Of a stretch of DNA of 64,000 nucleotides, positions 32,641 through 47,796 are shown in pieces. The translations under genes were made by a program, and so were the position numbers. How positions within the stretch are numbered: position 1 is the first letter of the stretch; every line of letters starts with the position of its first letter. The notes beneath the pieces were generated by a model. The model saw only the letters and a list, made by a program, of their open reading frames with translations, searched no databases and was not told the origin of the DNA. The DNA lies in contig CAZVQU010000002.1 of the NCBI GenBank assembly GCA_964629655.1, forward strand, positions 396,878 through 460,877, in the 5' to 3' direction. The DNA is from an uncultured Planctomycetia bacterium (GTDB lineage Bacteria > Omnitrophota > Gorgyraeia > Duberdicusellales > 4484-171).

Positions 32641-33294
32641 CTAATATTCGTCAATATCTACAAGTTTATGCTTAATAGCGTATTTAATCAGATCGCTGCT
32701 CCGGCGTAGGCTAAGTTTCTTTAACAGGGCACTTTTATAGTTTTCGACTGTCCTGGGACTGATAAACAAGACATCAGCTATCTGTTTAGCTGTTTTCCCC
32801 TCAACCACCAAACGCAAGATTTCCTCCTCCCTGGAAGTCAAAAGGCTTTCTTTAGCCGGCTGTTTGGGCTTACTATCAATTGCTTTATCTACCAGATAGG
32901 AAGAAACAGTCGAACTCAAATAGGTTTCCCCGCGGGCAATTTTGCCAAGGGCCACCAAAAGGTCCTCTCCGGCATTTTCTTTATGGAGATAGCCCTTTGC
33001 CCCAGCTTTAAACGCTTTCATTATATAAGTATGGGCCTTATGCACAGTAATGATTAAAATCTTGGTTTTCGGTGAGATATAGTGAACCTGCTCAATTACT
33101 TCAAGGCCGCTTATTTTAGGCATCGAAATATCTAGAAGAAGGATATCCGGTTTAAGTTTCTTGACCACCGCCACTACCTCTTCTCCGTCTGCAGCTTCTC
33201 CAACTACCTCATAGTCAAGACTGTCACGAAGGATATTTTTTATCCCTTCGCGAATGATATCGTGATCATCGGAAATTACAATCGAAATAGCCAT
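32641..33294 (-). CDS. NarL/FixJ-family response regulator (REC + LuxR-type HTH), 217 aa
   Basis: REC motifs (IVISDDH...DILLLDISMP...) and a C-terminal LuxR HTH (LTSREEEILRLVVEGKTAKQIADVLFISPRTVENYKSALLKKL). It starts 4 nt after the kinase stop. Confidence 0.9.
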   Translation of the reverse strand: MAISIVISDDHDIIREGIKNILRDSLDYEVVGEAADGEEVVAVVKKLKPDILLLDISMPKISGLEVIEQVHYISPKTKILIITVHKAHTYIMKAFKAGAKGYLHKENAGEDLLVALGKIARGETYLSSTVSSYLVDKAIDSKPKQPAKESLLTSREEEILRLVVEGKTAKQIADVLFISPRTVENYKSALLKKLSLRRSSDLIKYAIKHKLVDIDEY

Positions 33295-33297
33295 AAT

Positions 33298-34755: not shown

Positions 34756-35682
34756 TTATTTAGTTTTACTTTCCCAATCCAATACCTTCCTGGCTTCAAC
34801 AATCCAGTACTCCACTCTCACTGCATCTTTGGCATCGGGACGAACTTCAAGGTAAGCCTGATAATGCTCAATGGCTTTTCTTTTATTAATCAGATGCTCA
34901 TCATAAAGAATAGCCAAGTTATAGTGGACGTCGGCATCGTTCGGCGCCGCCTCTAAGGCCTTTTTGTATTCGATTAATGCCTTTTTGTATTTCAAATCTT
35001 GGTCGTAGGCAAGGGCCTTATTGTAATGATGTTTTAAAGCTTGTTTCCGAAACTTCTCGTCTTCCAAGCTTACCGAATCTAGCTGATCACTTCCCTTGCC
35101 CCCGGCAATCTTGAATTCAACAATTGTCTGGCTGCTTTCATCTAATTTTTCTAGGAGTTCTTTATTCTTTTCTATTGATTCTTCTAACTTTACCTCAGCA
35201 TTCTTCACCTGTTCCTCTAGCGCCTTTTTGTCAATAATAAATTCCACCATTTTTGAGTCGGCTTTTTTCTTAAAATCTTTCTCTCTGGATTCAACTTTAA
35301 GCTCATATAGCTTAATCTGCTTCTGATGTAATTTTTTTATCTCGGCTAAGGCGTCTTCTAAATCTTCTTTTCCGGCGGCTAAGGCCTCTTGCTGCTTCAC
35401 GAGGCTTTCTTTGGTCCGGATAATTTCTGCGATTTGTTCTTTCTGCAAAGCCATCTTGCTATTCAAACTTTCTTTTTCGGTAACAAAAAGAATATTCTTC
35501 TGATTCGCTTCAAGAAGCTCAATCTTTGCATCCTCTAGGCCCCGGCTTTTATCTTTTAGGTCTTGCTCTAAGAGCTTCACTTCGTCTACTAACTTGTTGT
35601 TAGCCATATAGACACTAACAACCAGCCCTGCGCATATTACCACTAATCCAATTCCTATACCTAGCCACTTGTTTTTATTCAT
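34756..35682 (-). CDS. membrane-anchored coiled-coil protein with a C-terminal TPR (308 aa); short paralog of the 2,263-aa protein
   Basis: N-terminal TM (WLGIGIGLVVICAGLVVSVYMA) and a long heptad-rich helical segment. The C-terminal TPR (ALAYDQDLKYKKALIEYKKALEAAPNDADVHYNLAILYDEHLINKRKAIEHYQAYLEVRP) is nearly the same as the C-terminus of the ORF at 38534-45325. It overlaps the secretin stop by 4 nt. Confidence 0.75.
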   Translation of the reverse strand: MNKNKWLGIGIGLVVICAGLVVSVYMANNKLVDEVKLLEQDLKDKSRGLEDAKIELLEANQKNILFVTEKESLNSKMALQKEQIAEIIRTKESLVKQQEALAAGKEDLEDALAEIKKLHQKQIKLYELKVESREKDFKKKADSKMVEFIIDKKALEEQVKNAEVKLEESIEKNKELLEKLDESSQTIVEFKIAGGKGSDQLDSVSLEDEKFRKQALKHHYNKALAYDQDLKYKKALIEYKKALEAAPNDADVHYNLAILYDEHLINKRKAIEHYQAYLEVRPDAKDAVRVEYWIVEARKVLDWESKTK

Positions 35683-37406
35683 TCTTTCTCCGGTTTCCTT
35701 GTTTTTCCATGGTTTTTCAAATAAAGCAGCTCTTCTTTTCCGGTTATAATATGCGGAGTGAGAAATACTACTAATTCCTTCATCTCCTTGGTGTTATATC
35801 TAGATTTAAAAGCGTTTCCCAAAACCGGAATATCGCTTAAAAAAGGTATCCTACTTTCAGAATCACTTATAGATTCCTTAATCATTCCGGCAATAATTAT
35901 CGTCTTCCCGTCTTGGATCAAGACAGTTGTCTCAGCATTAGATGTGTCTACCTCGGGCAGGCTAATTTGTGCTACTCCATCTTCATCCAATATCTCAAAC
36001 CAATCTATTAGTGTGCTAACTTCAGGTTTAATATGCATCTTTACTAAATCATCTTGATAAATCGTAGGCGTAACAGCAAGGGTTACGCCGACATCCACGA
36101 ATTCTGCAGTCCAGGAAGTAGTAGCTGTAGTTTCACTCTGAGAAACTGTGCTGGTAGCATAAGGCTGGCGCGTACCGACCATAATCGTAGCCTCTTCATT
36201 ATTACAAACAGCAATATGAGGAGAAGAAACAATTTTAACCTCACCGACCTCTTTTAAAAAAGTAAGAATCTGTTGAGTCCTGGTAGGGTCTAATCCTCCA
36301 GAATTCCAAGCTTCTGAAGTTGTCCCTTCGCCGGTATAAAATCCCTCTCGCCATTGCCCTACAGAAACCCTGCCATAAGAACTTGTTATCCCCGAAGCCG
36401 GGAAAGCACCTACAAGCTTTATATTCTTATCTGTAGTAGTAAACAGTGACTCCCAATTTACGCCAAAAGAATAATCATCACTTAAGGTTATCTCGACAAT
36501 CTTTGCTTCAATAAATATTTCTTTTGGCGGAGTATCGAAAGTAACAATCATCTCTGTAATCTCTTCAATCTTATTAGGCAAATCATTTACAATTATTTTA
36601 TTTGTCCTCTCATCGGCGCGAGCAGAGCCAAAACCTTCGGTCAAGACTGCAGTTACCTTTATTAGGATATCCGCAGCCTTAGAATACTTTAGCTCAAACA
36701 CTTTGGTAGTCGTAGGCGATGTTTTTTTAATAATACCTTCATCGAGACTAAACGCAGCTTTTTCCATTTCTCTTATCTTCTCCGGCGTATCTATTAAGAT
36801 AAGGCTGCCGGTAGCGTCGTCCATAATAATCTTACCGATAGAACTTTTAATGTTTGTCAAAGCCTCTCCGGCTTTTGTCGGCTTTATATACTTTAACTTC
36901 AAAGTCTTAACTTCTCCCTTGTTGGTATATTTCTCCCCATAGAGCGCTTCATACTCTGCCTCAGTCAATATGGTAATAATGTTTTTCTTTTTTTCACAAG
37001 CCAGTTTATTAGTAAGCAAGATTACATCCAGTGTGTCAGCGATAGTTACATCTTTTAGAAACAGGGTTATCCTTCCAGAAACATTTTTACTGGTAACAAT
37101 ATTCAAACCGCCTTTCAGTGATAAAAACTTAATAGTATCAACTATATCCATACCCCGTAAATCCAGCGATATTTTCTTAGCCAGGCCTTCTTCCATAGTA
37201 AGAGGGACTTTCTCAATATCCGAAGACTTATCGGTTAAGTCTTCTCCGGTGATAAGAGAGGTTTCGAGATCCAAAGACTCCTCAGTAGGTGAAACCGTCT
37301 CTTTAGAAGCAGCTGAAGTAGTCTCCTCAAGAGATTGAGCCTGTCCTGCTCCAGCGACTAAGCCAACAACAACCAATATTAACACTATCCAATTTATCTT
37401 TCTCAT
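35679..37406 (-). CDS. secretin, GspD/PilQ family (575 aa), copy 1
   Basis: Signal peptide, two Secretin_N-like domains (…TNKIIVNDLPNKIEEITEMI…), and a C-terminal secretin domain (VSSPHIAVCNNEEATIMVGTRQPY…GVTLAVTPTI…ETTVLIQDGKTIIIAGMI…IPFLSDIPVLGNAFKS…ELVVFLTPHII). Confidence 0.85.
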   Translation of the reverse strand: MRKINWIVLILVVVGLVAGAGQAQSLEETTSAASKETVSPTEESLDLETSLITGEDLTDKSSDIEKVPLTMEEGLAKKISLDLRGMDIVDTIKFLSLKGGLNIVTSKNVSGRITLFLKDVTIADTLDVILLTNKLACEKKKNIITILTEAEYEALYGEKYTNKGEVKTLKLKYIKPTKAGEALTNIKSSIGKIIMDDATGSLILIDTPEKIREMEKAAFSLDEGIIKKTSPTTTKVFELKYSKAADILIKVTAVLTEGFGSARADERTNKIIVNDLPNKIEEITEMIVTFDTPPKEIFIEAKIVEITLSDDYSFGVNWESLFTTTDKNIKLVGAFPASGITSSYGRVSVGQWREGFYTGEGTTSEAWNSGGLDPTRTQQILTFLKEVGEVKIVSSPHIAVCNNEEATIMVGTRQPYATSTVSQSETTATTSWTAEFVDVGVTLAVTPTIYQDDLVKMHIKPEVSTLIDWFEILDEDGVAQISLPEVDTSNAETTVLIQDGKTIIIAGMIKESISDSESRIPFLSDIPVLGNAFKSRYNTKEMKELVVFLTPHIITGKEELLYLKNHGKTRKPEKE

Positions 37407-38056
37407 ATCAGTTCGATCTCCCCTCCCTCAAAGCTCAAAATAACTCGATCTTTTAAAATATCTTCTATCTTAAACTTATTGATCTTCATACCTTTCTTAA
37501 GAAAGTATGTTTTCTTAGTCTTGCTATCCTCAATCATTGCCACTGGATCTTTGCTCCAAGATATGCCTACTAAGTCTAATTCTCCGATCATTTCCTGCAA
37601 CTGTTTTTTTTTAACTTCCTTATTACTTTTAGTTTCCTTGAGCGCTATCGGACTAAAGATGTTCCTACGGTTAACCATTTCGAAATAATGTAAGAACGGA
37701 CGGGCCTCGGATACCTCCTTCTGCTCAGACTGCCTCCATTTCATCAACCGGCTCTTTTCGTAAACTGCTTTTATATCGGGACGGCCGAAAACAAAAGCCA
37801 CTACTGCATAGCCTAGAAGAACCACCGATAGAACAAAAAAAACTCTGTTTAAAGTCTTCAAGTTAGGGTCTCTCAAACCCTTGATTAATCTTGTCAAGGG
37901 CCGGCTTATGCCTTTGGTCAAAAAACGCCAGAAACCTTTTAGGCCGCTGAAATTTAAAAACAGCTTCTTTTTCTGTCTGAATTTTGCGACTTCGTCGCCT
38001 TTGTCTATCAGCCTTAATAGCTGTTCTTCAGGAGTAAATCCTTGTTTTGCCATCAT
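37403..38056 (-). CDS. hypothetical single-pass membrane protein (217 aa), possibly a secretin-associated inner-membrane component (PilP/GspC-like C-terminal beta domain, tentative)
   Basis: Central TM (VFFVLSVVLLGYAVVAFVF). The C-terminal KKTYFLKKGMKINKFKIEDILKDRVILSFEGGEIELI is beta-rich. 4-nt overlap with the secretin start. It is absent from the paralogous copy-2 module. Confidence 0.5.
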   Translation of the reverse strand: MMAKQGFTPEEQLLRLIDKGDEVAKFRQKKKLFLNFSGLKGFWRFLTKGISRPLTRLIKGLRDPNLKTLNRVFFVLSVVLLGYAVVAFVFGRPDIKAVYEKSRLMKWRQSEQKEVSEARPFLHYFEMVNRRNIFSPIALKETKSNKEVKKKQLQEMIGELDLVGISWSKDPVAMIEDSKTKKTYFLKKGMKINKFKIEDILKDRVILSFEGGEIELI

Positions 38057-38150
38057 AATTTTGCCCTAGAGTTAACGATTTCTCCTATGATTTTTTTATC
38101 CCCAACAGATTCATTTTCCTTATCTAAACCAAAAATCTGATAGTAACCCA

Positions 38151-38378
38151 TCAAATGCCCTCTAACTGTTTTCTAATTAAACGTAAAGGATAACCTTCAT
38201 TCATAAGCCGGGTTATCTTAGCCAACCTTCTTCTGACCTCAGCCTGATTATACATCCGCACATTGCCTTTTTTGGTTGCTATGCGCAAAAGGCCGAAATT
38301 AGTGTAGTGATTAACAGTCTGGTAAGTAATGCGGTACTTTTTTGTAATCTCCTGGGCTGATATTAGCTTACCATCCAT
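38151..38378 (-). CDS. small MerR-like (BldC/excisionase-type) HTH DNA-binding protein, 75 aa, copy 1
   Basis: ISAQEITKKYRITYQTVNHYTNFGLLRI..KKGNVRMYNQAEVRRRLAKITRLMNEGYPLRLIRKQL matches the MerR N-terminal HTH-wing. There is no effector domain. The DNA is 100% identical to the copy at 47268-47495. Confidence 0.7.
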   Translation of the reverse strand: MDGKLISAQEITKKYRITYQTVNHYTNFGLLRIATKKGNVRMYNQAEVRRRLAKITRLMNEGYPLRLIRKQLEGI

Positions 38379-38533
38379 ATTAGCTTTTCCGTACTTTCTT
38401 AGGTATTAATATACTTATGGTAACTACAATAGATATGGTTATCATTGTATATACTACAACCTTCTTATATTACCACAGCCTTTCGCTTATTCTCTCCGTG
38501 GTGTTTATCGCTTAGACCGAATCTAGACAATGA

Positions 38534-41500
38534 TTAATCCCAAGAATCCCACTCTAAGGCTTGGCGGGCCTTAATTATCCAACCAGCCACTTGCGACTCA
38601 TCTTCAGCAACAGGCTTGAGATCAAGGTATTCCTGATAATGCTGGATAGCCTTTCTTTTCTCATTTAGATGGTCATCATAGATAAGAGCTAAATTGTAGT
38701 GGGCATCAGCATCGTTAGGGTTAATTTTCAACACCTCTTCATATTCCATGGCAGCTTCGTGATACCTTTCGTTGTAGTCGAGTTCGAAAGCCTGGTAATA
38801 GTGTTGGCTGAGAAGATTCTCATCTATCTCTTCCTCCTTTTTGAAAACTTTTTCTTTGATCATCCGAGCTTGAGACAAATTCTTCCACTGCCTCGTCTTC
38901 TTTCTCTTCTCAGATAATATTTCCTTCATTTCTTGGTTAGCCCGGGCAGCATCTCGTTCGGCCTTTTCTATTTTGGCAAACTCCTTTTTCCTCTTAGCTT
39001 CCAACACTTCCATCTCAAGTCCCCACTTTTCTTCACCCCAATCACTAAATTTCTTATGCAAAATTGTAAAAGAGGTTTTAAGATTTCCGAATGCTGTGTT
39101 TACTAGAGTCTCCTGATCTTTGATATCTTTAAGGTTTTTCTGTGCAACTTCTAAATCATTCTGGATAGGAATTATCTCTTTTTCAACATCTTCAAGACTT
39201 TTGCGGATCTTCGGCAACTTCACTTGAAGTGATTTTTCTTTTTCGTTAAGTTTTTCTAATCCTGTTTCTTCTTCCTCCAGGGATTTACCCAAATTAATTA
39301 TTCTCTTTTGCGATCCATCAATTTCTGCCTTTTTTTCTGAAATTTCAAATTCCAATTGTTCCTGCTTTCTACCTAATCTTGCTACTTTCGTCTCTTGGTC
39401 TTCAGTCAGTTTATTGAACTCATAGATATCTACCTTAATTACCTCTCTTTCTCTTACAAATTGGTCAGCCTTTCTTTTAAAATCTCTCTTTTGAATCGTA
39501 AGTTCTCCCAACCGGCTGGTAGAACCAGCTAGGCGCACAGCCACCTCTTCTATTTCCTTTTGAATTACCCTCTCATCTTTCTTCAAGTTATCGAGCTCAA
39601 TCTTAAAAGCCTTCTCCTGCCTACCTAGCTGCTCTTCCTGAACCCAGGTTTTATCGATAAGGCGATTTATCATAGTTATTTTTTGTTGGGATCCCCGACG
39701 CCGGGAGGTTATCTCAGAGAGTTTGTTTTCCTGAATCTGTTCATCCTTGTCTAGAAAAATGAGCTTTTCTTCAGCTTCAGCTAAAGAAGCGGTGGCCTCA
39801 ATTATCTGGTTGGCCAAAAACTCTTTTTCAGTATTAAAGCTCTGAAATTCCTTATTGATCCGGGCTTGTTCACGGACAAATCCATCTTGTTTCTTTTTCT
39901 CCTGATCGATCCGGGAGGATATCTGGGAGATGCTCAGATCGAATCCCAGGGTTGCATTCTTGAATTCATCCTTCTGCCGGGATATTTCTTCTTCCCTATT
40001 AAGCTTCTCTTGGGCCAAGTCTTTTTGAAACCGACTTATCTTAACTTGTGACTCTTTCTGGAAAACTAATATCTGATTAAGTTCGGATTTAAGGGCTTGC
40101 TGTTTTTGGATTAGCTCACTAATTTTTACCGTATAACCTTTTAACCCTTTTTCTCCGGCCTCGATAGCGCCTTTTAAATCTTGTTGTTGAGTAGTTAGGG
40201 TTATGATCTCTTCGGTCAAGGCGTTCTTTTCTAAAGATAGTTTATTTTGGAAGGATTTTTCTTGGTTGAAGGAACGAGATGTTTTCTCTATTTCGGCCTG
40301 GATATCTTCTCTGCTTTTTACCACCGAATCCATCTCAGCCTGAAGAAGTTTCTCCTGTCTACTTAGCCGCTCTCCGGCCTGCTTATTCTTTTTTAAACCA
40401 GTGAGCTTTTCTTTAGCTCTAGCTAAAGAAGCGATGGCATCAGTTATCTGTTTGGCCAAAATCTCTTTGTCAGCCTTAAAGCTATTGAATTCCTCATTGA
40501 TTCGGGGCTGTCGGCGGATAAGCTCATCTTGTTTCTTTTTCGCCTGGTTAATCCGGGATGATATCTGAGGAATATCCATACCAATAAGTTCTATATTCTT
40601 TTCTATCCCTGATAGAGTAACGATAAAAGCTTTTTCCCTTTCTAAAGATTGGGATTGCTCTTGCTCTGCCTGCTCTTTTTGAACTAAAAAGTCTTCGCTC
40701 TTGTTTTTAAGAATTTGTAATTCTTTTTGCAATAACTCAAGACGACTGGTCAGCTTTTTCTCTTCGGATACAATCTCAGCTTCCTCAACCTGAGCTTTAT
40801 CGATAAGATCACTTAGCATAATTATCTTTTGTTGGTATTCCTGACTCTGGGAGGCTATCTGGGAAAGTTTATCTTTCTGAACTTGTTGATCCTTTTTAAA
40901 ACCAGTGAGTTTTTCTTTGGCTTTAGCTAAAGAAGCAGTGGCATCAGTTATCTGTTTGGCCAAAATCTTTTTGTCAGCCTTAGAGTTATGAGATTCCTCA
41001 TTGATCCGGGTTTGATTCCTAGTAAGCTCATCTTGTTTCTTTTTCGCCTGGTCGATCCAGGAGGATGTCTGGGAAATATCTATGCCAATAAATTCTATAT
41101 TCTTCTCTATCTCTGATAAGGTAATGACAGAAGCTTTCTCTCTTTCTAAAGATTGGGGTTGCTCTTTTTCAGCCAAGAAGTCTTTATTCCTGTTTTTAAA
41201 AGTTTTTAATTCTTTTTGTAATAACCCAAGCCGCCTGGTCAGCTTTTTCTCTTCGGATACAATCTCAGCTTCCTCAACCTGAGCTTTATCGATAAGATGA
41301 CTTAGCATAACTATTTTTTGTTGGTATTCCTGACTCTGGGAGGCTATCTGGGAAAGTTTATTTTTCCGAGCCTGTTGATCATTCTTTAAAACAGTGAGTC
41401 TTTCTTTAGCTTTAGCTAAAGAAGCAACGCCTTCAGTTATCTGTTTGGCCAAAATCTCTTTGTCAGCCTTAGAGCTATGAAATTCTTCATTGATTCGGTT

Positions 41501-44500
41501 TTGATTCCTAGTAAGCTCATCTTGTTTCTTTTTCGCCTGGTTGAACCGGGAGGATATCTGGGAAATATCTATGCCAATGAGTTCTATGTTCTTTTCTATC
41601 CCTGATAGAGTAACGATAAAAGCTTTTTCTCTTTCTAAAGATTGGGAAGCCTGAATTTTTTTATCATCAATGTCATTAAGGATATCTACTATTTCCCTCT
41701 GTATAGCTTCCCTATCAGTAGTAAGTTTTGTAAGAGCGACTCTTTTATCAACTTCTTTTTCAGGGCTAAGTTTAGAAATTTTATCCTGCATTTTTCGTTC
41801 TTGAATAACAATCTTTCTTTCAGCACTCTTTTTTGTTTTTAAAAGGGAACTCAACCTTTTCATTTCATCCTTGCCTACTTTTCCTAAAATAAGAAGCACC
41901 TCAGCTAGTCCTGCTTCTGAAGTTTCTCTATTGCCAATTAATACCTGCCTTGCATTTCTCTTTTCTTCCAACAGCGCCTTCAATTTTAACAGCTTAATAT
42001 TGTTGTCTTTAATCTCTGACTTTATACTGGAAATTTTTAGCTTAGTAGAATCTTGATACGCAGAAATATCTTTATTAGCAGCTTGATGGATTTTTAATGT
42101 TTTATTCGCTTCGTCGATTTGACTTTTAATATTTTTTTCCGTACGAGTTAATCTTATCTCTTTTATTTTTAAAGAATCTTTAGTAATACTTAACTCACCG
42201 TAGGTATCTTTAGCTTCGGCAAAAAGATCTTTTAGCCTAACGATTTCGGCCTGGATATCTTCTCTGCTTTTTACCACCGAATCCATCTCAGCCTGAAGAA
42301 GTTTCTCCTGTTTACTTAGCCCCTCTCCGACCTGCTTATTCTTTTTTAAAACAGCGAGCTTCTTCTCAGCCTCAGCTATCTGTTTGGCCAAGTCCTCCTT
42401 CTCACCATCGATGTCATAAAGCTCCTCACTAATTCGAGGTTGTCGACGGATAAGCTCATCTTGCTTATTTCTTGCCTGGCTGATCCGAGAGGATATCTGG
42501 GAAATATCCATGCCAATGAGTTCCATATTCTTTTCTATCCCTGATAGAGTAACGATAACAGCTTTTTCTCCTTCTAAAGATTGGGATTGCTCTTGCTCTA
42601 CTTGCTCTTTTTGAACCAAGAAGTCTTTGCTCTTGTTTTTAAGAGTTTGTAATTCTTTTTGGAATAACTCAATCCGGCTAGTCAGCTTTTTCTCTTCGGA
42701 TACAGTCTCGTCTTCCTGAACTTGGGTTTTATGGATAAGGCGCTCTAGCATAGTTACTTTTTGTTGGTGTTCCTGACTCTGGGAGGCTATCTCGGAAAGT
42801 TTATCTTTCTGAACTTGTTGATCCTTTTTAAAAACAGTGAGTTTTTCTTTAGCTTTAGCTAAGGAAGCAGTAGCTTCAATTATCTGGCTGGCTAAAATCT
42901 CTTTATTGGTATTAAAACTATGGAATTCCTCACTAATACGGGGTTGTCTCCGGATAAGCCTATCTTGTTTCTTTTTCGCCTGGTTGAGCCGGGAGGATAT
43001 CTGGGAGACGTCCATATCAATGATTTCTATATTCTTCTCTATCCCCGATAAGGTAACGATAACAGCTTTTTCTCCTTCTAAAGATTGGGATTGCTCTTGC
43101 TCTACTTGCTCTTTTTGAACCAAGAAGTCTTTGCTCTTGTTTTTAAGAGTTTGTAATTCTTTTTGCAATAACTCAAGCCGGCTGGCCAGCTTCTTCTCTT
43201 CAGATACAATCCTAGACTCCCGAACCTGGGTTTTATAGATAAGGCGGTCTAGCATAGTTACTTTTTGTTGGGATTCCTGGCTCCGGGAGGTTACCTGGGA
43301 AAGTTTATCTTTCTGAACCTGTTGATCATTTTTTAAAACAGTGAGTTTTTCTTTGGCCTCGGCTAAAAAGGTAGTACCCTCAATTATCTGGTTGGTCAAA
43401 TCCTTTTTCTCAGCATCGATGTCATAAAGCTCCTCGTCAATCCGGGTTTGTTGCCGAGTAAGCTCAGCCTGTTTCTTTTTCTCCTGGTTGAGCAGGGAGG
43501 ATATCGGAGAGATGCTCAGATCGAATTCCAGGGTTGCATTCTTAAAATGCTCATCCTGCCAGGATATTTCTTTTTCCTTATTAAACTTCTCTTGGACCAA
43601 GTCATCTTGAAACCGTCTTATCTTAGCTTGTGATTCTTTCTGAAAAGTTAATATATGCTTCAGGCCGGATTCAAGGGATTTTTTCTTTTCCTTAATTAAA
43701 ATATTTCCTTTAGCTTGCTCTTTAGCTAAAACATTTATCTCTTCCTTTATCTCACCTATTCGCAGCTTGATATTTTCCTTTTCCTGTCCAAGAGAAACAA
43801 GGACTTCCTGAGTATTTTTATAGCCTTTAGAAATATTTTCTAGATGTGACTCCTCATCCTCTAACAAATCTTCTTGTTCTAATATCTCGCTTTTTAAAGC
43901 AGCTTTTTTACTGTCCACTATTGAAAGCTCGGCTAAAACCTCTCTTTGTTCTTTTAAAACCTTTTCTTTTTCCTGATTTTTTCCACTTATGTCGCTTTTT
44001 AGACTCTCTATCTCTTTCTGGATAATTCTTTCCTTTGAAAATATTTTTAGAGACACATGGCCTTTTTTTTCTTTGGTTTTAAGGATATTTTGTTGTTTAT
44101 CAAAAAATTCATTTTCAAGAAGCTTGACTGTTTTCTTAATATCTCTTATTCGTTTTCCTAAATCTGCAATTTCAGAATTAACCCTTAAAAGCTCTAACCC
44201 TGCTGGCTTTGCTCTTTCCTCCAACCTTGTCAAGAGTTGCCTTTCTTTTTCTAAGGAATTCTTAACATTCAATATGTTGGTTTCTGTATTTCTCTGCTCA
44301 GTAATATTTTTCGATATCTCTGCTACTGTTTCACTTTCTTGCCACAAGAGGTTTTGCTTAACTTTTTCTTTCTCGCCTAAAGCAGAATAAATATCTTCAA
44401 CCACGTCTCCAGCTAATTCTTTATCTCTCTCAATACCCATTAATTGTAGTGTCAGTTCTTTCTCCTGTTCATCCAATTCTTTTTCCTTCAAAGACCCTTC

Positions 44501-45325
44501 TGCTAAAAGTTGGTCTAATCTCTCAATTTTTGTTTGGAAACCCTCTGGCTTAGAAGAACTAAATTTCCCAACCTTAGCTCTAACTTCAGCTACTTCTCGT
44601 TCAACTTGTACCTCGATTTTTCTTTGTATTCTCTTGTGGAATTTTTCATCTTTTTTAGCTTCTTTCGCGGCTCGAGCTTCTATTTTTTGGGCACCTAGTT
44701 CAATTGCTTTTTCCTCCTTCTTGTGGATTTTTTCAGCTTTCCTAGCTTCCTTCGCAGCTAGAGCTTCTATTCTTTGGGCGCCTAGTTCAATTGCTTTTTC
44801 CTCCTTCTTCCGGATTTTTTCAGCTCTCCTAGCTTCCTTTTCAGCCTGAGCTACTTCTCGCTTAACTTGCACCTCGACTTCTCTTTGTATTTGCTTGCGG
44901 ATTTTTTCAGCTTTCTTAGCTTCCTTCGCGGCTAGAGCTTTTTTTCTTTGAGCAGCTAGTTCAGCTGCCCTCTGTTCCTTTTTGCGGAGTTTTTCAGCTT
45001 TCTTAGCTTCCTTCGCGGCTTTAGCCTTCTCTCTTTGAGCAGCTAGTATAGCTGCCCTTTGTTCCTTTTTGCGGAGCTTTTCAGCTTTCTTAGCTTCCTT
45101 CGCGGCTTTAGCCTTCTCTCTTTGAGTAGCTAGTTCAGCTGCCCTTTGTTCCTGCTTATTGAGTTCTTCAACTTGTTTATCCTTTTCATTTTCAGAGTCA
45201 ATAAGAAGAATCTCTTTAGAGTATTCTTCTAAATCGCTGTCCTTTGCTGATGCTACAAAGTCATTTACAAAAAAGACAGTTAAAAGCAGGGCCAATATAG
45301 GGATGTAATTTTTCTTTAACATCAT
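38534..45325 (-). CDS. giant secreted coiled-coil protein with internal tandem repeats and a C-terminal TPR (2,263 aa)
   Basis: Signal peptide MMLKKNYIPILALLLTVFFVNDFVASA. About 6 K/A/E-rich repeats of 25-28 aa (KEQRAAELAAQREKAKAAKEAKKAEKLRKK). About 7 copies of a roughly 160-aa unit (SLE(G/R)EKA.IVTLSGIEKNIE.IG.DISQISSR.NQAKKKQDEL.R.Q.RI.EE…). C-terminal TPR (YNERYHEAAMEYEEVLKINPNDADAHYNLALIYDDHLNEKRKAIQHYQEYLDLKP). Confidence 0.85.
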   Translation of the reverse strand: MMLKKNYIPILALLLTVFFVNDFVASAKDSDLEEYSKEILLIDSENEKDKQVEELNKQEQRAAELATQREKAKAAKEAKKAEKLRKKEQRAAILAAQREKAKAAKEAKKAEKLRKKEQRAAELAAQRKKALAAKEAKKAEKIRKQIQREVEVQVKREVAQAEKEARRAEKIRKKEEKAIELGAQRIEALAAKEARKAEKIHKKEEKAIELGAQKIEARAAKEAKKDEKFHKRIQRKIEVQVEREVAEVRAKVGKFSSSKPEGFQTKIERLDQLLAEGSLKEKELDEQEKELTLQLMGIERDKELAGDVVEDIYSALGEKEKVKQNLLWQESETVAEISKNITEQRNTETNILNVKNSLEKERQLLTRLEERAKPAGLELLRVNSEIADLGKRIRDIKKTVKLLENEFFDKQQNILKTKEKKGHVSLKIFSKERIIQKEIESLKSDISGKNQEKEKVLKEQREVLAELSIVDSKKAALKSEILEQEDLLEDEESHLENISKGYKNTQEVLVSLGQEKENIKLRIGEIKEEINVLAKEQAKGNILIKEKKKSLESGLKHILTFQKESQAKIRRFQDDLVQEKFNKEKEISWQDEHFKNATLEFDLSISPISSLLNQEKKKQAELTRQQTRIDEELYDIDAEKKDLTNQIIEGTTFLAEAKEKLTVLKNDQQVQKDKLSQVTSRSQESQQKVTMLDRLIYKTQVRESRIVSEEKKLASRLELLQKELQTLKNKSKDFLVQKEQVEQEQSQSLEGEKAVIVTLSGIEKNIEIIDMDVSQISSRLNQAKKKQDRLIRRQPRISEEFHSFNTNKEILASQIIEATASLAKAKEKLTVFKKDQQVQKDKLSEIASQSQEHQQKVTMLERLIHKTQVQEDETVSEEKKLTSRIELFQKELQTLKNKSKDFLVQKEQVEQEQSQSLEGEKAVIVTLSGIEKNMELIGMDISQISSRISQARNKQDELIRRQPRISEELYDIDGEKEDLAKQIAEAEKKLAVLKKNKQVGEGLSKQEKLLQAEMDSVVKSREDIQAEIVRLKDLFAEAKDTYGELSITKDSLKIKEIRLTRTEKNIKSQIDEANKTLKIHQAANKDISAYQDSTKLKISSIKSEIKDNNIKLLKLKALLEEKRNARQVLIGNRETSEAGLAEVLLILGKVGKDEMKRLSSLLKTKKSAERKIVIQERKMQDKISKLSPEKEVDKRVALTKLTTDREAIQREIVDILNDIDDKKIQASQSLEREKAFIVTLSGIEKNIELIGIDISQISSRFNQAKKKQDELTRNQNRINEEFHSSKADKEILAKQITEGVASLAKAKERLTVLKNDQQARKNKLSQIASQSQEYQQKIVMLSHLIDKAQVEEAEIVSEEKKLTRRLGLLQKELKTFKNRNKDFLAEKEQPQSLEREKASVITLSEIEKNIEFIGIDISQTSSWIDQAKKKQDELTRNQTRINEESHNSKADKKILAKQITDATASLAKAKEKLTGFKKDQQVQKDKLSQIASQSQEYQQKIIMLSDLIDKAQVEEAEIVSEEKKLTSRLELLQKELQILKNKSEDFLVQKEQAEQEQSQSLEREKAFIVTLSGIEKNIELIGMDIPQISSRINQAKKKQDELIRRQPRINEEFNSFKADKEILAKQITDAIASLARAKEKLTGLKKNKQAGERLSRQEKLLQAEMDSVVKSREDIQAEIEKTSRSFNQEKSFQNKLSLEKNALTEEIITLTTQQQDLKGAIEAGEKGLKGYTVKISELIQKQQALKSELNQILVFQKESQVKISRFQKDLAQEKLNREEEISRQKDEFKNATLGFDLSISQISSRIDQEKKKQDGFVREQARINKEFQSFNTEKEFLANQIIEATASLAEAEEKLIFLDKDEQIQENKLSEITSRRRGSQQKITMINRLIDKTWVQEEQLGRQEKAFKIELDNLKKDERVIQKEIEEVAVRLAGSTSRLGELTIQKRDFKRKADQFVREREVIKVDIYEFNKLTEDQETKVARLGRKQEQLEFEISEKKAEIDGSQKRIINLGKSLEEEETGLEKLNEKEKSLQVKLPKIRKSLEDVEKEIIPIQNDLEVAQKNLKDIKDQETLVNTAFGNLKTSFTILHKKFSDWGEEKWGLEMEVLEAKRKKEFAKIEKAERDAARANQEMKEILSEKRKKTRQWKNLSQARMIKEKVFKKEEEIDENLLSQHYYQAFELDYNERYHEAAMEYEEVLKINPNDADAHYNLALIYDDHLNEKRKAIQHYQEYLDLKPVAEDESQVAGWIIKARQALEWDSWD
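39600..43700 (-). repeat. tandem units of about 480-660 nt inside the coiled-coil gene (about 7 copies at 70-90% nucleotide identity)
   Basis: The recurring nucleotide block ggaaagtttatctttctgaac(t/c)tgttgatc…agtgagtttttctttggctttagctaaagaagcagtggcatcagttatctgtttggccaaaatc has copies near 39720, 40380, 40860, 41343, 42340, 42797 and 43299. Confidence 0.8.
44620..45150 (-). repeat. short tandem repeats of about 80-110 nt encoding the K/A/E-rich N-terminal repeat region of the coiled-coil protein
   Basis: Repeated tttttcagctttcttagcttccttcgcggct(a/t)gagc…ttgagcagctagttcagctgccc(t/c)ttgttcctttttgcgga. The shadow ORF 44634-44849 shows the periodic FWAPSSIAFSSF. Confidence 0.75.
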
Positions 45326-45335
45326 TTTTTTATTC

Positions 45336-47198
45336 CTATAATGCTTCTGTGCGAATTTTGCGCCTTGGCGGCTTCCGCCGCTTTTTTCCTTCCCTATAGT
45401 ATTTTGAATTTTTCTTTGTTTTATCTATCTGCTCCACGTATAAAATATCTTTATCCCCGGATATAATACGTGGAGTGAGAAATATTACTAATTCCTTCAT
45501 CTCCTTGGTATTATAGGTAGACTTGAACATTTTTCCCAAAAAAGGAATATCGCCTAGAAAGGGAGTCTTTTTTTCGGATTCAGTCATGGTTTCCCTAATC
45601 ATCCCGGCAATAATCACAGTTTTCCCGTCTTGAATCAAAGCAGTTGTCTCAGCATTAGATGTATCTACCTCCGGCAGGAGAATTTGGCTTGTTCCGGCTT
45701 CATCCTGTATCTCAAACCAATCTATCAACGTACTCACTTCGGGCTTAATATGCATCTTTACAAAATCCCCTTGATAAATCGTAGGGGTAACCGTAAGGGT
45801 TACGCCGACATCTACGAATTCTGCGCTCCAGGAGGTAGAAGATGCAGTATCGGTGTTAGAAATTGTGCTGGTAGCATAAGGCTGACGCGTACCGACCATA
45901 ATCTTAGCCTCTTCATTGTTGCAAACAACAATATGAGGAGAAGAAACAATTTTAACTTTACCCACTTCGTTTAAGAAGGTAAGAATCTGCTGCGCTTGGG
46001 TAGGGTCTAATCCTCCGGGATTCCAAGCTTCTGAAGTTGTCCCCTCGCCGGTATAAAATCCCTCTCGCCATCGTCCTAGAGAAATCCGGCCGTAAGAACT
46101 TGTTATCCCCGAAGCCGGGAAGTCACCTGTAATCCTTATATTCTTCCTTGATGAAGCCTTGAACATTGTCTCCCAGTCCACGCCAAAAGAAAAATCATCA
46201 CTTAAAGTTATCTCAACAATCTTTGCTTCAATAAATATTTCTTTTGACTGGGTATCAAAAGTAGCAATCATCTCTGTAATCTCTTCAATCTTATTAGGCA
46301 AATCATTTACAATTATTTTATTTGTCCTCTCATCGGCGCGAGCAGAGCCAAAACCTTCGGTCAAAGCCTCAGTCACCTTTAGTACAAGATCTTCAGCTTG
46401 GGAATACTTTAACTCAAACACTTTGGTAATCGTCGGCGGCATCTTTTCGATAATACCTTCATCAAGCCGTAGCGCAGAGCTTTCCATTTCTCTTATCTTC
46501 TCCGGTGTATCTATTAAGATAAGACTGCCGGTAGCATCATCCATAATAATCTTACCAATAGAACTTTTAATGCTTGCTAAAGCCTCTCCGGCTTTTGTGG
46601 ACTGAATATACTTTAGCTTCAAAGTTTTAATTTCTCTTTTTTCGGTGTATTTCTCTCCATAGAGCGCTTCATACTCTACCTCAGTCAATATGGTAATAAT
46701 GTTTTTCTTTTTTTCACAAGCCAGTTTATTAGTAAGCAAGATTACATCCAGTGTGTCAGCGATAGTTACATCTTTTAGAAACAGGGTTATCCTTCCAGAA
46801 ACATTTTTACTGGTAACAATATTCAAACCGCCTTTCAGTGATAAAAACTTAATAGTATCAACTATATCCATACCCCGTAAATCCAGCGATATTTTCTTAG
46901 CCAGGCCTTCTTCCATAGTAAGAGGGACTTTCTCAATATCCGAAGATTCATCGGCAGACGAAGCCGTTTCTTTAGAGGCAGCTGCATCAATCTCTTCAAG
47001 TAACTGAACCTGCCCTATCGCATCAGTTAAGTCTTCTTCGGTGATAAGAGAGGTTTCGAGATCCAAAGATTCCTCAGTAGGCGAAACCGTCTCTTTAGAG
47101 ACAGCTGAGGTAGTCTCCTCAAGAGATTTAGCCTGTTCTGCTCCAGCGACTAAACCAACAACAACCAATATTAACACTATCCAATTTATCTTTCTCAT
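45336..47198 (-). CDS. secretin, GspD/PilQ family (620 aa), copy 2; paralog of 35679-37406 with a 45-aa N-terminal insertion
   Basis: Same N-terminus (MRKINWIVLILVVVGLVAGA) and same secretin C-domain. 276 nt (46681-46956) and about 100 nt (46271-46374) are identical to copy 1. The extra segment ITEEDLTDAIGQVQLLEEIDAAASKETASSADESSD is itself an internal duplication. Confidence 0.85.
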   Translation of the reverse strand: MRKINWIVLILVVVGLVAGAEQAKSLEETTSAVSKETVSPTEESLDLETSLITEEDLTDAIGQVQLLEEIDAAASKETASSADESSDIEKVPLTMEEGLAKKISLDLRGMDIVDTIKFLSLKGGLNIVTSKNVSGRITLFLKDVTIADTLDVILLTNKLACEKKKNIITILTEVEYEALYGEKYTEKREIKTLKLKYIQSTKAGEALASIKSSIGKIIMDDATGSLILIDTPEKIREMESSALRLDEGIIEKMPPTITKVFELKYSQAEDLVLKVTEALTEGFGSARADERTNKIIVNDLPNKIEEITEMIATFDTQSKEIFIEAKIVEITLSDDFSFGVDWETMFKASSRKNIRITGDFPASGITSSYGRISLGRWREGFYTGEGTTSEAWNPGGLDPTQAQQILTFLNEVGKVKIVSSPHIVVCNNEEAKIMVGTRQPYATSTISNTDTASSTSWSAEFVDVGVTLTVTPTIYQGDFVKMHIKPEVSTLIDWFEIQDEAGTSQILLPEVDTSNAETTALIQDGKTVIIAGMIRETMTESEKKTPFLGDIPFLGKMFKSTYNTKEMKELVIFLTPRIISGDKDILYVEQIDKTKKNSKYYREGKKRRKPPRRKIRTEAL

Positions 47199-47267
47199 AT
47201 CAGTTCAATCTTCTTCGTCATCAACCGACCTTTTCCTTATCTAAACCAAAAATCTGATAGTAACCCA

Positions 47268-47495
47268 TCAAATGCCCTCTAACTGTTTTCTAATTAAACG
47301 TAAAGGATAACCTTCATTCATAAGCCGGGTTATCTTAGCCAACCTTCTTCTGACCTCAGCCTGATTATACATCCGCACATTGCCTTTTTTGGTTGCTATG
47401 CGCAAAAGGCCGAAATTAGTGTAGTGATTAACAGTCTGGTAAGTAATGCGGTACTTTTTTGTAATCTCCTGGGCTGATATTAGCTTACCATCCAT
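47268..47495 (-). CDS. small MerR-like HTH DNA-binding protein, copy 2. The track ORF extends to 47522 through an alternative upstream ATG, but the copy-1 homology starts at MDGKL.
   Basis: The coding sequence and about 50 nt of 3' flank are nucleotide-identical to 38100-38392. The two copies diverge 12 nt upstream of the ATG. Confidence 0.65.
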   Translation of the reverse strand: MDGKLISAQEITKKYRITYQTVNHYTNFGLLRIATKKGNVRMYNQAEVRRRLAKITRLMNEGYPLRLIRKQLEGI

Positions 47496-47796
47496 ATTAG
47501 CTTTTCCGTTTACTGCCGCCATTTGTATAGTACCTTAATACTCCACTGTGATCTAGACATTAATTAGTCAACTTATGATACCTACCATAAGTATGACTCT
47601 TATTGAACCTATCATAAAAAGACTTTGTTGCCAAGAAACATCTAAAGATGACAATCCGTACAATTGATATCAAGTTATTGTGGTAAATACAATAACTATA
47701 GTTATTATTGAATTTATCACAAAACCAATAACTTGTCAATATTTTGTTAAATATTATAAAAATGAGGAGCCGGAGCTGAATATATTAGCAAAAATG

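Follow-up and report, generated by a model that had tools for sequence, protein, structure and literature searches.

The open reading frame at 38534..45325 on the reverse strand of the window, the 64,000-nucleotide stretch of DNA analysed here, encodes a real coiled-coil protein of 2,263 residues that is predicted to be exported. Judged by its sequence, this long protein belongs to a family of secretin companions that has not been described before, and it far exceeds the 290–560 aa usual for members. We assign a probability of about 0.6 to the explanation that it is a length-variable tether from this family, docked on the secretin encoded by the preceding gene (secretin A), and we rate it as a variant of the TPR-type secretin accessories, the variant itself being new.

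Almost all work on secretins concerns their place in pilus, type II, and type III machines, where small pilotins assist them. The cassette described here is compact and self-contained, combining a regulator, GspA/B-like factors, a secretin, a coiled-coil–TPR protein, and a two-component system, and its TPR component occurs in some lineages as a fusion with the secretin, while in another it has been lengthened five- to seven-fold. It offers testable handles on how TPR accessories contact secretins, on the role of an orphan secretin in an uncultured predatory or parasitic nanobacterium, and on a cell-length envelope coiled coil as a surface tether or periplasmic skeleton.

Two tandem cassettes and a family of secretin companions

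The window carries two tandem cassettes, A with the long partner and B with a short paralog, and all features given below lie on the reverse strand. Cassette A is headed by a small MerR-like HTH protein (47268..47522; Pfam MerR_1, 4.3e-09), and genes of this kind also head the cassettes at L006, L007, L010, and L011. Next is secretin A (45336..47198; Pfam Secretin, 1.9e-47), a 620-aa MshL/GspD/PilQ-like protein that matches the NCBIfam PilQ, GspD, and MshL models, all under their cut-offs (secretins score 180–187 bits versus 250 for MshL). It ends in an extra 20-aa basic tail with a net charge of +10; such a tail is found in all four of the secretins that precede a long partner (net +9 to +13) and is absent before short partners. 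After the secretin A stop codon, a gap of 10 bp leads to the start of the long coiled-coil–TPR gene, where an AGGA lies ~11 nt 5' of the ATG and the frame is open across 2,263 codons plus the stop (ORF list and translation). Promoter and terminator scans gave results no better than chance.

Cassette B begins with a 75-aa MerR-like HTH protein (38151..38378, read from the sequence), whose gene belongs to a 279-bp stretch that is 100% identical to positions 47231–47509 (blastn of A versus B). It is followed by a 217-aa GspB/GspC-HR-like inner-membrane protein that occurs in cassette B only (37403..38056), with weak matches to T2SSC and GspC (22 bits versus a cut-off of 27, and 23.4 bits). Counterparts by position (218–226 aa) are found at L007, L010, L011, and the P0256 locus, coming after an AAA_22 ATPase in all of these except L007, while an N-terminal TPEE.LLR.I motif is common to the 217-aa protein and a 345-aa protein of L008. 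Secretin B (35679..37406; Pfam/NCBIfam and alignment) is 575 aa long and 79% identical to secretin A, with the greatest divergence in the C-terminal tail (40% identity). Its gene overlaps by 4 bp that of the 308-aa short paralog (34756..35682), for which AlphaFold2 (AF2) and alignment indicate a TM anchor, a ~165-aa helix (~24.5 nm), a Gly-rich linker, and a TPR module. The AF2 model (pLDDT 84.7) contains one helix over aa 4–191 (188 residues), the linker at 192–199, and the TPR helices at 200–307; the TPR module has a pLDDT above 90 and superposes on the designed protein CTPR2 (1na3) with an rmsd of 1.6 Å over 86 columns. The cassette is closed by a HisKA_3 histidine kinase (33298–34698) and a LuxR-type response regulator (32641–33294), together spanning 32641..34698 (Pfam, NCBIfam), and the same pair closes the cassette at L006, L007, L010, L011, L014, and L016. 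Neither cassette contains an AAA_22 ATPase by Pfam or NCBIfam, and the 64-kb window encodes neither a pilin or platform protein nor an ATPase of a pilus or pseudopilus. A protein of 9,419 aa with many Laminin_G_3 and DUF2341 domains belongs to the same gene string. At L012, what follows the response regulator is a gene unrelated to it, and thus the giant gene is not a conserved part of the cassette.

A profile search with the TPR module recovers proteins of 290–562 aa with a single or double C-terminal match, an N-terminal TM segment or signal peptide, and a coiled coil. The exhaustive form of this search gave 111,751 hits, mostly generic multi-TPR proteins, from which family members were chosen by eye as those with a single or double C-terminal full-profile match, while a word-indexed search with the TPR module gave seven proteins only. 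The resulting family plan consists of an N-terminal anchor or signal peptide, a coiled coil, and one or two C-terminal TPR modules with the signature HYNLA..YDD...KAI.HY..YL..P.A.DA..V..W. Family alignments (A2, A4, and A5) have 18–23 invariant columns, and the long protein carries both the signature and the layout. Several members of ~500 aa also have signal peptides. The tandem duplication of the cassette, the 290–560-aa family, and an Omnitrophota nanobacterium as host all go beyond what the preliminary description had drawn from the sequence. The host is placed in Candidatus Omnitrophota by the source names of the secretin and TPR homologues.

In every context read, namely the two cassettes of the window, L006, L007, L010, the P0256 locus, L008, L014, L015, and L016, the family gene lies directly 3' of an MshL/GspD-like secretin. 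The fullest cassette consists of a MerR-like protein, an AAA_22 ATPase (GspA/ExeA/MshM-like), a GspB/GspC-HR-like protein, a secretin, a coiled-coil–TPR protein, a histidine kinase, and a response regulator, with the ATPase present at L010, L011, L008, and the P0256 locus. This arrangement is kept across the Omnitrophota and also in at least one further lineage, which is GC-rich, and JGI labels the homologous secretins MshL. Some Omnitrophota instead have a homologous TPR module as part of the secretin: five homologous secretins (P0058, P0059, P0068, P0127, and P0042) end in an acidic linker and a TPR module, and at the loci of P0059 (L011 and L012), no separate TPR gene precedes the kinase and regulator. 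The fused and family modules are 35% identical over 74 aa (E = 5e-11; hhalign probability 96.6%). Within double-module members, the fused module is closer to the first than to the terminal module, the long protein having the terminal type. The tie to the adjacent secretin suggested in the preliminary description, along with the expectation that homologs with the same C-terminal TPR would be found beside secretins, is thus borne out by both the adjacency and the fusions. This secretin link is the strongest result of our analysis.

Because the TPR–secretin fusions replace the separate gene and the adjacency is conserved, the TPR end would be the part that docks on its secretin. As read from the sequences, the module most likely docks on the cognate secretin at its periplasmic, outer-membrane-proximal face. 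Several observations count against the tether explanation: the fused module is closer to the first than to the terminal module, the window cassettes have no AAA_22 ATPase, the window encodes no pilus components, and the charge match of TPR modules to secretin tails is inconsistent across pairs. PDB sequence and fold searches with the TPR module returned generic or designed TPRs only, no filament genes were found at any cassette locus in the ~20 kb read around each, and a scan of genome contigs with the secretin alignment, for which the peptide patterns were poor, gave one irrelevant Elusimicrobium secretin.

Architecture of the long protein

The long protein consists of a signal peptide, basic 29-aa repeats, a heptad rod (aa 257–2103), and a C-terminal TPR module. 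It is rich in Lys (14.4%), Glu (13.7%), Leu (10.2%), and Gln (8.4%), with 0.6% Pro and no Cys. The predicted Sec signal peptide (aa 1–27; 45245..45325) was assigned by rule from its short h-region and the A-S-A at residues 25–27, and reads MMLKKN-YIPILALLLTVFFV-NDFVASA before the cleavage point, with KD after it. The same rule-based inspection finds the A-S-A cleavage-type site kept in the L006 and L007 orthologs. The long form and these two orthologs have an h-region of ~14 aa followed by a conserved A-x-A at residues 25–27, whereas the short form and its orthologs have an uncharged span of 24–26 aa and the conserved A-x-A is absent, consistent with the earlier proposal of a cleavable signal in the long form and a membrane anchor in the short one.

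The Ala/Lys/Glu-rich repeats (aa 51–250; 44576..45175) have a net charge of +26 and occur in ~6–8 copies, with TRF resolving 87 bp × 6.0 and 261 bp × 2.0 and blastn giving self-shifts of 29, 58, and 87 aa at 75–81%. About six short repeats of 25–28 aa had been described here; the copy number agrees with ours, while the period by TRF is 29 aa. The Leu/Ile heptad score of this region is weak, and AF2 predicts a single helix over aa 60–246 at a pLDDT of 60–70.

The rod (aa 257–2103; 39017..44557) would be ~274 nm long if fully extended. Its heptad character was assessed by in-house Fourier analysis and register tracking, which are distinct from COILS, Marcoil, and DeepCoil. The hydrophobicity of the long protein has a Fourier peak at a period of 3.5 that is 65 times the median, with a harmonic at 2.33, and hydrophobic residues occupy 59% of a and 77% of d positions versus 14–25% of b, c, e, f, and g. 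Over aa 257–2103, the register breaks 9 times versus 28 in a shuffled control, and unbroken heptad runs extend up to 414, 333, 246, 204, and 178 aa. These features confirm the heptad coiled coil proposed earlier. Where it had been called continuous, the heptad rod holds and strict continuity does not, given the ~9 register breaks.

Within the rod, seven units of 157–168 aa begin at aa 562, 721, 889, 1206, 1370, 1533, and 1756 of the assembled sequence and cover aa 562–1045, 1206–1695, and 1756–1914 (39584..43642; self-comparison and TRF). Their subtypes are arranged as one beta, five alpha, and one beta, and they have in common the core motif [LI]S.SQISSR.NQ.KKKQDEL. Unit identity is 36–77% in protein and 72–90.5% in DNA, and TRF gives 489 bp × 2.5 at 85%. 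The repeats were mapped by chunked searches, as BLASTP of the whole protein against itself gave the diagonal alone. The seven units correspond to the roughly seven copies of a ~160-aa unit noted before, and the DNA identities to the whole-unit duplications of 70–90% noted with them. The two repeat classes, described as nested, instead sit in series; nesting holds within each, as an 87-aa super-period in the 29-aa repeats and a higher-order duplication of ~644–649 aa in the long units.

The C-terminal signature TPR module (aa 2171–2263; 38537..38815; Pfam TPR_11 and TPR_17) consists of two TPRs and a cap helix and has a net charge of −12. As anticipated, it is common to the 308-aa paralog, with 45 of 90 residues identical (50%; E = 7e-30). 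Across all 2,263 aa, Pfam matches TPR models only, and no S-layer, SLH, LPXTG, autotransporter barrel, or T1SS/RTX domain is found. Matches of the rod to NCBIfam SMC and Mycoplasma helix-rich models were rejected as compositional coiled-coil similarity, phmmer searches of the repeat regions against PDB sequences gave no match, and no record turned up in exact-sequence look-ups of the long protein, of secretin A, or of P0008 and P0009, while FabF matched short Logan contigs only, which carry no taxonomy. An AF2 model of aa 1–1200, made with no alignment, has low confidence (pLDDT 52), and its secondary-structure outline alone was used, cautiously.

Length variation and the placement of the rod

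Complete long orthologs have 1,455 and 1,603 aa. Their ends are collinear with those of the window protein and the number of units varies, with seven in the 2,263-aa, four in the 1,603-aa, and three in the 1,455-aa protein. Between L016 and L006, the secretins are 97% identical and the long proteins differ by clean indels of 183 and 35 aa. Such whole-unit differences between near-identical populations (1,455 versus 1,603 aa) argue against a molecular ruler of fixed length, one of the roles raised in the preliminary description; another, an S-layer-like surface structure, finds no support in Pfam, where no S-layer or anchoring domain was matched. Elsewhere, the orthologous gene contains a scaffold gap (L007) or runs off the end of its contig within the repeats (L013, L014, and L015, and the fragments P0001, P0171, P0277, and P0278). 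Long genes of this type are systematically broken by short-read assembly in this way, and the family is therefore under-counted in databases.

In the tether explanation, the TPR module would serve as an assembly, stabilising, or positioning factor, comparable to MshN, TadD, and PilF/PilW/Tgl. The stalk of ordinary members, like the ~24-nm helix of the 308-aa paralog, would bridge the inner membrane to the secretin. The cassette was tandemly duplicated in this lineage, and its first copy would then have been altered in three respects: the TM anchor would have given way to a cleavable signal peptide, the secretin would have gained its 20-aa basic tail, and the stalk would have become a segmented rod of ~270–310 nm with a strongly basic N-terminal end, growing by amplification of the 29-aa and heptad-phased long units. 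The free basic end would then most likely reach far past the inner-to-outer-membrane distance, and a straight rod would be ~270–310 nm long, about equal to the width of a tiny cell. A rod of ~300 nm is too long for a simple strut, and the family-level mechanism leaves such a length unexplained. Within the tether explanation, we lean slightly toward a periplasmic scaffold over a fibre threaded through secretin A.

As an explanation in its own right, the scaffold is tentative, with about one chance in three by our estimate. Here, the rod would stay in the periplasm, parallel to the membranes or folded at non-helical segments, and connect secretin A complexes with each other, with peptidoglycan, or with membranes as a mesh or spacer in a cell of very small size. 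Topology places the family in the periplasm, and in the fusions the module sits at the secretin C-terminus. Conservation, both among the units and relative to the L006 ortholog, is highest in a once-per-unit motif (0.82–0.86 versus 0.45–0.6 elsewhere) that could be a periodic binding site. The low-confidence AF2 outline has a non-helical segment of ~25 aa once in each long unit, and anionic polymers of the envelope could be bound by the basic repeats near the N-terminus. However, the heptad register carries across units, a 168-aa unit being exactly 24 heptads, which argues for a straight rather than a folded rod. Pfam also detects no peptidoglycan-binding or lipid-anchor domain in the long protein, and whole-unit length variation between strains is left unexplained.

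Somewhat less probable is a secretin-anchored surface fibre, in which a coiled-coil dimer or oligomer would be threaded N-terminus-first through secretin A and tethered by its TPR module, giving a flexible fibre of ~300 nm whose basic, sticky tip contacts prey or host. In three orthologs, the inner-membrane anchor is replaced by a signal peptide with the conserved A-x-A, and the long form has a dedicated paralogous secretin with its own conserved basic tail. Close relatives differ in length by whole units, a variation typical of exposed fibrillar stalks. The Cys-free composition, the net charge of +26 over the N-terminal 200 aa, a rod length close to the cell width, and the giant Laminin_G_3/DUF2341 protein in the same gene string are also in keeping with a fibre, as is the host: most Omnitrophota are small enough to pass 0.45-µm filters, and a predatory or parasitic life that relies on pili is predicted for them (PMC10066038). 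Against this, the fusions indicate that the TPR module sits at the periplasmic face of the secretin, genes for a piston, a pilus, or an ATPase are absent nearby, and signal peptides in ~500-aa members that are not long indicate that anchor loss is not specific to a fibre. Moreover, the threading of a coiled coil through a secretin has, as far as we know, no precedent. A narrower form, to which we give about one chance in four, is that the duplicated secretin is dedicated to displaying its own accessory, with the coiled coil threaded out and plugged by the TPR module as a ~300-nm fibre that matches the cell in length and is adjusted as 24-heptad units are gained or lost. If true, this would amount to a novel type of surface appendage that depends on a secretin and needs neither pilins nor an ATPase, with a polycationic tip that catches prey or hosts.

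The length could also be mere repeat runaway, in which the protein does the same job as members of 300–560 aa and the extra ~1,700 residues are tolerated products of slippage or unequal crossover in a coiled coil of low complexity. The lower identity of the units in protein than in DNA, the differing copy numbers in relatives, and the fact that units within the window protein are closer to one another than to L006 units all point this way. We nonetheless regard it as improbable: the 6.8-kb frame is intact here, the long orthologs keep frames of 4.4–4.8 kb with collinear end regions merely ~57–65% identical, and the unit length preserves heptad phase. Furthermore, the long form occurs beside the short form in every relative with a duplicated cassette, and the signal peptide, secretin tail, and basic tip change together with it. 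Finally, an origin of the repeat number or of the whole long frame in mis-assembly, to which the broken orthologs (the L007 gap and the contig ends within repeats) and the 279-bp identity between cassettes might point, is very improbable, as the longest exact internal repeat of the gene is ≤113 bp and assembler collapse of short reads is thus not forced, the units differ by 10–28% in DNA over an intact 6.8-kb frame, the secretin is matched at 100% identity by the record P0008, which comes from an NCBI contig of 598,929 bp, and the complete 1,455- and 1,603-aa orthologs come from independent contigs, one of 181 kb.

Relation to known systems

PilF, PilW, and Tgl are TPR proteins on which secretins depend to multimerise and to reach the outer membrane; these pilotins are outer-membrane lipoproteins of ~250 aa with about six TPRs and no coiled coil. 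The family TPR profile matches PDB PilF weakly and at the TPR level (E = 2.4e-05), and the 308-aa paralog scores 33.4 against a Tgl cut-off of 225 (NF033762) and 30.0 against a PilW cut-off of 154 (TIGR02521), while the long protein matches neither NCBIfam model. These scores are far below the cut-offs, and, unlike pilotins, the proteins have two TPRs plus a cap only and no lipobox: the signal of the long protein ends in A-S-A followed by K, and the sole N-terminal Cys of the paralog sits in VVIC.

MshM is an ExeA homologue and MshN a TPR protein (PMC4624765), and MshN is in turn a homologue of TadD, which the Tad secretin needs in order to assemble (PMC6668835). The likeness to MshN/TadD lies in gene content, in that a TPR protein is encoded beside an MshL-type secretin and an ExeA/MshM-like ATPase in relatives (L010, L008, L011, and the P0256 locus). 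Unlike these, the long protein has just two TPRs, which follow a long coiled coil; pilus genes are absent nearby, and the window cassettes are without the ATPase. TadD is also a lipoprotein, whereas the long protein has no lipobox. Searches of the long protein and paralog with Pfam and NCBIfam matched generic TPR models only and no MshN/TadD-specific model. In V. cholerae, deletion of mshM or mshN does not reduce MSHA pilus production (PMC4624765), and hence the nearest named analogue has no proven assembly role.

The GspA–GspB (ExeA–ExeB) systems resemble the cassette in having an AAA_22 ATPase and then a bitopic, weakly GspC-HR-like protein of ~220 aa directly 5' of the secretin, such that the secretin is packaged with its own assembly factors. 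The counterparts, however, are other genes of the cassette rather than the coiled-coil–TPR protein, and we know of no coiled-coil–TPR partner in GspA–GspB systems. Streptococcal M proteins, golgins (giantin), and SMC arms likewise have a heptad rod of hundreds of residues that bears a binding module at one of its ends and varies in length with the number of repeats, but the long protein has no LPXTG or cell-wall anchor, and these comparators are not coupled to a secretin. The NCBIfam SMC matches are confined to the rod and to coiled-coil positions of the models (70.1 bits versus 567 for TIGR02168 and 39.9 versus 729 for TIGR02169), and an SMC identity was rejected on these scores, far below cut-off, with neither an ATPase head nor a hinge.

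With TolA and Thermotoga Omp-alpha, the family has in common an envelope-bound long helix that spans the periplasm to an outer-membrane partner, a description that the 308-aa paralog (~24 nm) fits. No sequence relationship to either was found, with no TolA C-terminal or SLH domain; there are no tolQR genes in the 64-kb window, and the long protein has no TolA domain match in Pfam or NCBIfam. Where TolA has an N-terminal anchor, the long protein has what is predicted to be a cleavable signal. To our knowledge, the long protein is 6–10 times longer than any known periplasm-spanning rod. Its Ala/Lys/Glu-rich 29-aa repeats resemble TolA domain II in composition.

A heptad rod with a two-TPR end

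The long gene (38534..45325, minus strand) starts 10 bp after the stop codon of secretin A, with an AGGA about 11 nt 5' of its ATG, and its frame is open over 2,263 codons, in agreement with the preliminary description of a long secreted protein. The product is rich in K (14.4%), E (13.7%), L (10.2%) and Q (8.4%), with 0.6% P and no Cys. The heptad-like helix originally claimed for it is borne out by our own Fourier analysis and a simple register tracker: over aa 31-2170, the positions of Leu/Ile/Val/Met/Phe/Tyr give a peak at a period of 3.5 with 65 times the median power, accompanied by the 7/3 harmonic, and apolar occupancy is 59% at a and 77% at d versus 14-25% at the other heptad positions. 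Between aa 257 and 2103, the register changes 9 times, compared to 28 times in a shuffled control, and the longest unbroken heptad runs in the protein cover 414, 333, 246, 204 and 178 residues. If fully extended, aa 257-2103 would form a rod of ~274 nm, or up to ~314 nm with the N-terminal helix, which is the span of hundreds of nanometres first proposed.

Short repeats are present at the N-terminus as described, but with a period of 29 aa rather than 25-28 aa: TRF detects 87 bp × 6.0 with a super-period of 261 bp, and the repeats continue in degenerate form across aa 51-250. They are Ala/Lys/Glu-rich, carry a net charge of +26, and score poorly for Leu/Ile heptads, and aa 60-246 are modelled by AF2 at low confidence as a single helix. 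The roughly seven copies of a ~160-aa unit that had been noted are found as seven units of 157-168 aa (starting at aa 562, 721, 889, 1206, 1370, 1533 and 1756), with pairwise identities of 36-77% in protein and 72-90.5% in DNA, the latter matching the earlier reading of 70-90%. A 168-aa unit corresponds to exactly 24 heptads, and the register continues from one unit into the next. The units are of two subtypes, ordered beta, alpha ×5, beta in the window protein and beta, alpha, beta, alpha in one ortholog. The most conserved stretch over units and orthologs, [LI]S.SQISSR.NQ.KKKQDEL (column conservation 0.82-0.86 vs 0.45-0.6 elsewhere), adjoins, once per unit, a ~25-aa Val/Ile/Gly-containing segment that is non-helical in a low-confidence AF2 model.

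At the C-terminal end, aa 2171-2263 match TPR_11 and TPR_17. This end is indeed common to the 308-aa paralog (34756..35682, minus strand), with 50% identity over 90 aa (E = 7e-30). An AF2 model of the paralog (pLDDT 84.7, from an 11-sequence family alignment) consists of one helix at aa 4-191, comprising a TM segment and ~165 periplasmic residues over ~24.5 nm, followed by a Gly-rich linker (aa 192-199) and five helices that superpose on designed two-repeat TPR proteins (1na3, rmsd 1.6 Å, 86 columns). The two forms also differ at the N-terminus. In the long form and its orthologs, a ~14-residue h-region precedes N-D/G and an A-x-A conserved at residues 25-27, whereas in the short form and its orthologs, a span of 24-26 uncharged residues is not accompanied by a conserved A-x-A. 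Read by rule, these N-termini fit cleavage of the signal from the long form and its retention as an inner-membrane signal-anchor in the short form, as was suggested at the outset. In two orthologs (L006 and L016), a TPR-like segment, …LCGESYEKGDYPKVKECAKEIFLIDSNNREVKQYLYKI…, follows the signal peptide, and the window protein keeps a mere remnant of it, …EEYSKEILLIDSENEKDKQ…, at aa 28-45 (45190-45244); the ancestor thus probably had TPR elements at both ends.

Two tandem secretin cassettes

The secretin/coiled-coil-TPR cassette is duplicated in the window. The housekeeping genes fab, leu, asd and truA are followed by two cassettes in tandem, all on the minus strand. Cassette A consists of a MerR-like gene (47268-47522), secretin A (45336-47198) and the long gene. 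Cassette B opens with a second MerR-like gene (38151-38378), followed by the gene for a 217-aa bitopic protein that weakly resembles GspC-HR (37403-38056), by secretin B (35679-37406; it shares 79% identity with secretin A) and by the 308-aa paralog, which overlaps the secretin B gene by 4 bp; it closes with a HisKA_3 kinase and a LuxR-type regulator. The GspB/GspC-HR-like 217-aa gene occurs only in cassette B, and at the matching place in cassette A there is a 70-bp gap (47199-47267). The 64-kb window encodes neither a pilus or type II ATPase nor a platform protein or pilin.

Both MerR genes fall within a stretch of 279 bp over which the cassettes show 100% identity (47231-47509 vs 38114-38392). 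Over their first ~520 bp, the secretin genes are 95-99% identical, third codon positions included, and ~74-86% identical further on. This 5'-to-3' gradient suggests gene conversion in the 5' part. Such a gradient could also confuse assemblers.

A conserved secretin-adjacent family

A profile of the C-terminal module was searched against 1.84 billion representatives. The matches are swamped by generic TPR proteins, but the search also recovers proteins of 292-562 aa with a single or double C-terminal match spanning the whole profile, all of which begin with a TM segment or signal peptide and continue into a coiled coil. In every context read, this coiled-coil-TPR (CC-TPR) gene lies 3' of a secretin gene, so the adjacency that the preliminary description proposed to look for is found throughout, and the long protein belongs to a conserved secretin-adjacent family. 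One related locus (L010) has the order MerR, AAA_22, 218 aa, secretin, 328-aa CC-TPR, kinase, regulator; that of P0256 reads AAA_22, 221 aa, secretin, 409-aa CC-TPR; and a GC-rich, non-Omnitrophota-like locus (L008) reads AAA_22, 345 aa, secretin, 499-aa CC-TPR, kinase, regulator. The succession of an AAA_22 protein and a ~220-aa bitopic protein is reminiscent of GspA/GspB (ExeA/ExeB) and MshM. The AAA_22 (GspA/MshM-like) ATPase of L010, L011 and L008 is absent from both window cassettes. Almost all secretin homologues with source names are from Candidatus Omnitrophota/Omnitrophica; one secretin record (P0008), from an NCBI contig of 598,929 bp, matches secretin A at 100% identity, and one long-form ortholog fragment carries the name 'Candidatus Omnitrophica bacterium'. 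As a side observation, L010 encodes a 485-aa RtcB with a LAGLIDADG gene nearby, and the 994-aa RtcB of L007 (63-3047) contains an intein (Intein_splicing).

Five homologous secretins (P0058, P0059, P0068, P0127 and P0042) end in an acidic linker and a TPR module. The fused module matches the family module with 35% identity over 74 aa (E = 5e-11, hhalign probability 96.6%). At both loci of the P0059 fusion (L011 8001-10091 and L012 1539-3629), there is no separate TPR gene before the kinase, and the fusion takes the place of the downstream CC-TPR gene. In established secretin structures, the C-terminus faces the periplasm close to the outer membrane. Together with the fusions, this places the likely site of action of the TPR module there and suggests that the module docks on the secretin.

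Stalk growth and proposed function

Relatives repeat the tandem arrangement, with a long form in the first cassette and a ~305-aa form in the second. The long form has 1,603 aa in L006, where another long copy lies upstream, and 1,455 aa in L016, on a 181-kb contig; in L007 the gene contains a scaffold gap, in L013-L015 it is cut within repeats at contig ends, and the remaining matches are fragments. At both ends, the long orthologs align collinearly with the window protein, with 57-65% identity. The middles differ, with seven long units in the window protein and four and three in the others, and the 29-aa repeats are more numerous in the window. The stalk of the first cassette copy has therefore been amplified in a lineage-specific manner. 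The upstream copy in L006 (2-1402) is cut by the contig start, leaving the C-terminal 466 aa, and precedes the set of MerR, secretin and 1,603-aa genes; this relative may thus carry three cassettes in tandem.

An extra 20-aa basic stretch (…GKKRRKPPRRKIRTEAL, net +9 to +13) is conserved at the end of all four secretins encoded before a long partner, those of the window, L006, L007 and L016; secretins before short partners lack it and end in a 24-aa near-neutral tail. The C-terminal tail (45336-45470 in secretin A, minus strand) is the most divergent part between secretins A and B. The basic tail may be the partner-specific contact.

Gene order and the fusions suggest that the TPR end would dock on its own secretin as an accessory. 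In ordinary members, a ~24-nm stalk would then bridge the inner membrane to the secretin. The extended rod of the long form would be of about the same length as the cell diameter, which makes a simple strut impossible; released from the inner membrane, the long form would instead be a tether docked on secretin A. Two placements of the rod carry roughly equal weight: it may stay in the periplasm as a scaffold, or it may be a fibre threaded out through a dedicated secretin A with its polycationic N-terminal end distal. Neutral repeat runaway is a less likely explanation: the gene retains its frame and the repeats their heptad phase, a long form stands beside a short form in every relative with a duplicated cassette, and correlated changes accompany it. 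The existence of the long gene is unlikely to be an assembly artefact, while its exact unit count possibly is one. The longest exact DNA repeat inside it is 113 bp. Between L016 and L006, whose secretins are 97% identical, the long proteins differ by clean indels of 183 aa and 35 aa, reflecting either real variation in copy number or a collapse during assembly of one of the two.

The long protein would work most like the TPR-type secretin accessories, its TPR end being comparable to MshN, TadD or pilotins. MshM has been equated with ExeA and MshN described as a TPR protein (PMC4624765); TadD and MshN have been reported to be homologues, and TadD is needed for assembly of the Tad secretin (PMC6668835). 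Assignment to PilF/PilW/Tgl failed: a lipobox is lacking, there are two TPRs instead of about six, and the scores fall far short of the cut-offs. Its matches to SMC proteins are compositional only. In the searchable literature, we found neither this cassette described nor any secretin partner whose coiled coil is this long, and we classify the long protein as a variant among TPR-type secretin accessories, within a CC-TPR family undescribed in that literature. It is of interest for its unusual geometry and for a secretin-partner link that is clean and can be tested.

Omnitrophota are for the most part nano-sized, with a predicted predatory or parasitic lifestyle relying on pili (PMC10066038), and type II-like loci have been noted near their giant genes, with no mention of a coiled-coil-TPR partner (bioRxiv 10.1101/2023.11.21.568195, 10.64898/2026.06.07.730766). 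Directly after the kinase and regulator pair of cassette B lies a 9,419-aa ORF (4200-32459, minus strand; its TTG start is a mechanical listing), which is rich in G, T, S and D and has at least four DUF2341 and seven Laminin_G_3 stretches. Giant proteins for the cell surface or adhesion have been reported for Omnitrophota, and this ORF probably encodes one of that type; the gene at the matching position in L012 is unrelated. The 9,419-aa ORF is followed on the same strand by a 244-aa protein without Pfam matches (3445-4179), which has a signal-like N-terminus and a TM segment at its C-terminus, and then by a receiver-GGDEF diguanylate cyclase (2255-3151). Also on the minus strand, a single 243-aa ORF (385-1116) matches both the B/B' and delta (OSCP) Pfam models, an ATP synthase b-delta fusion.
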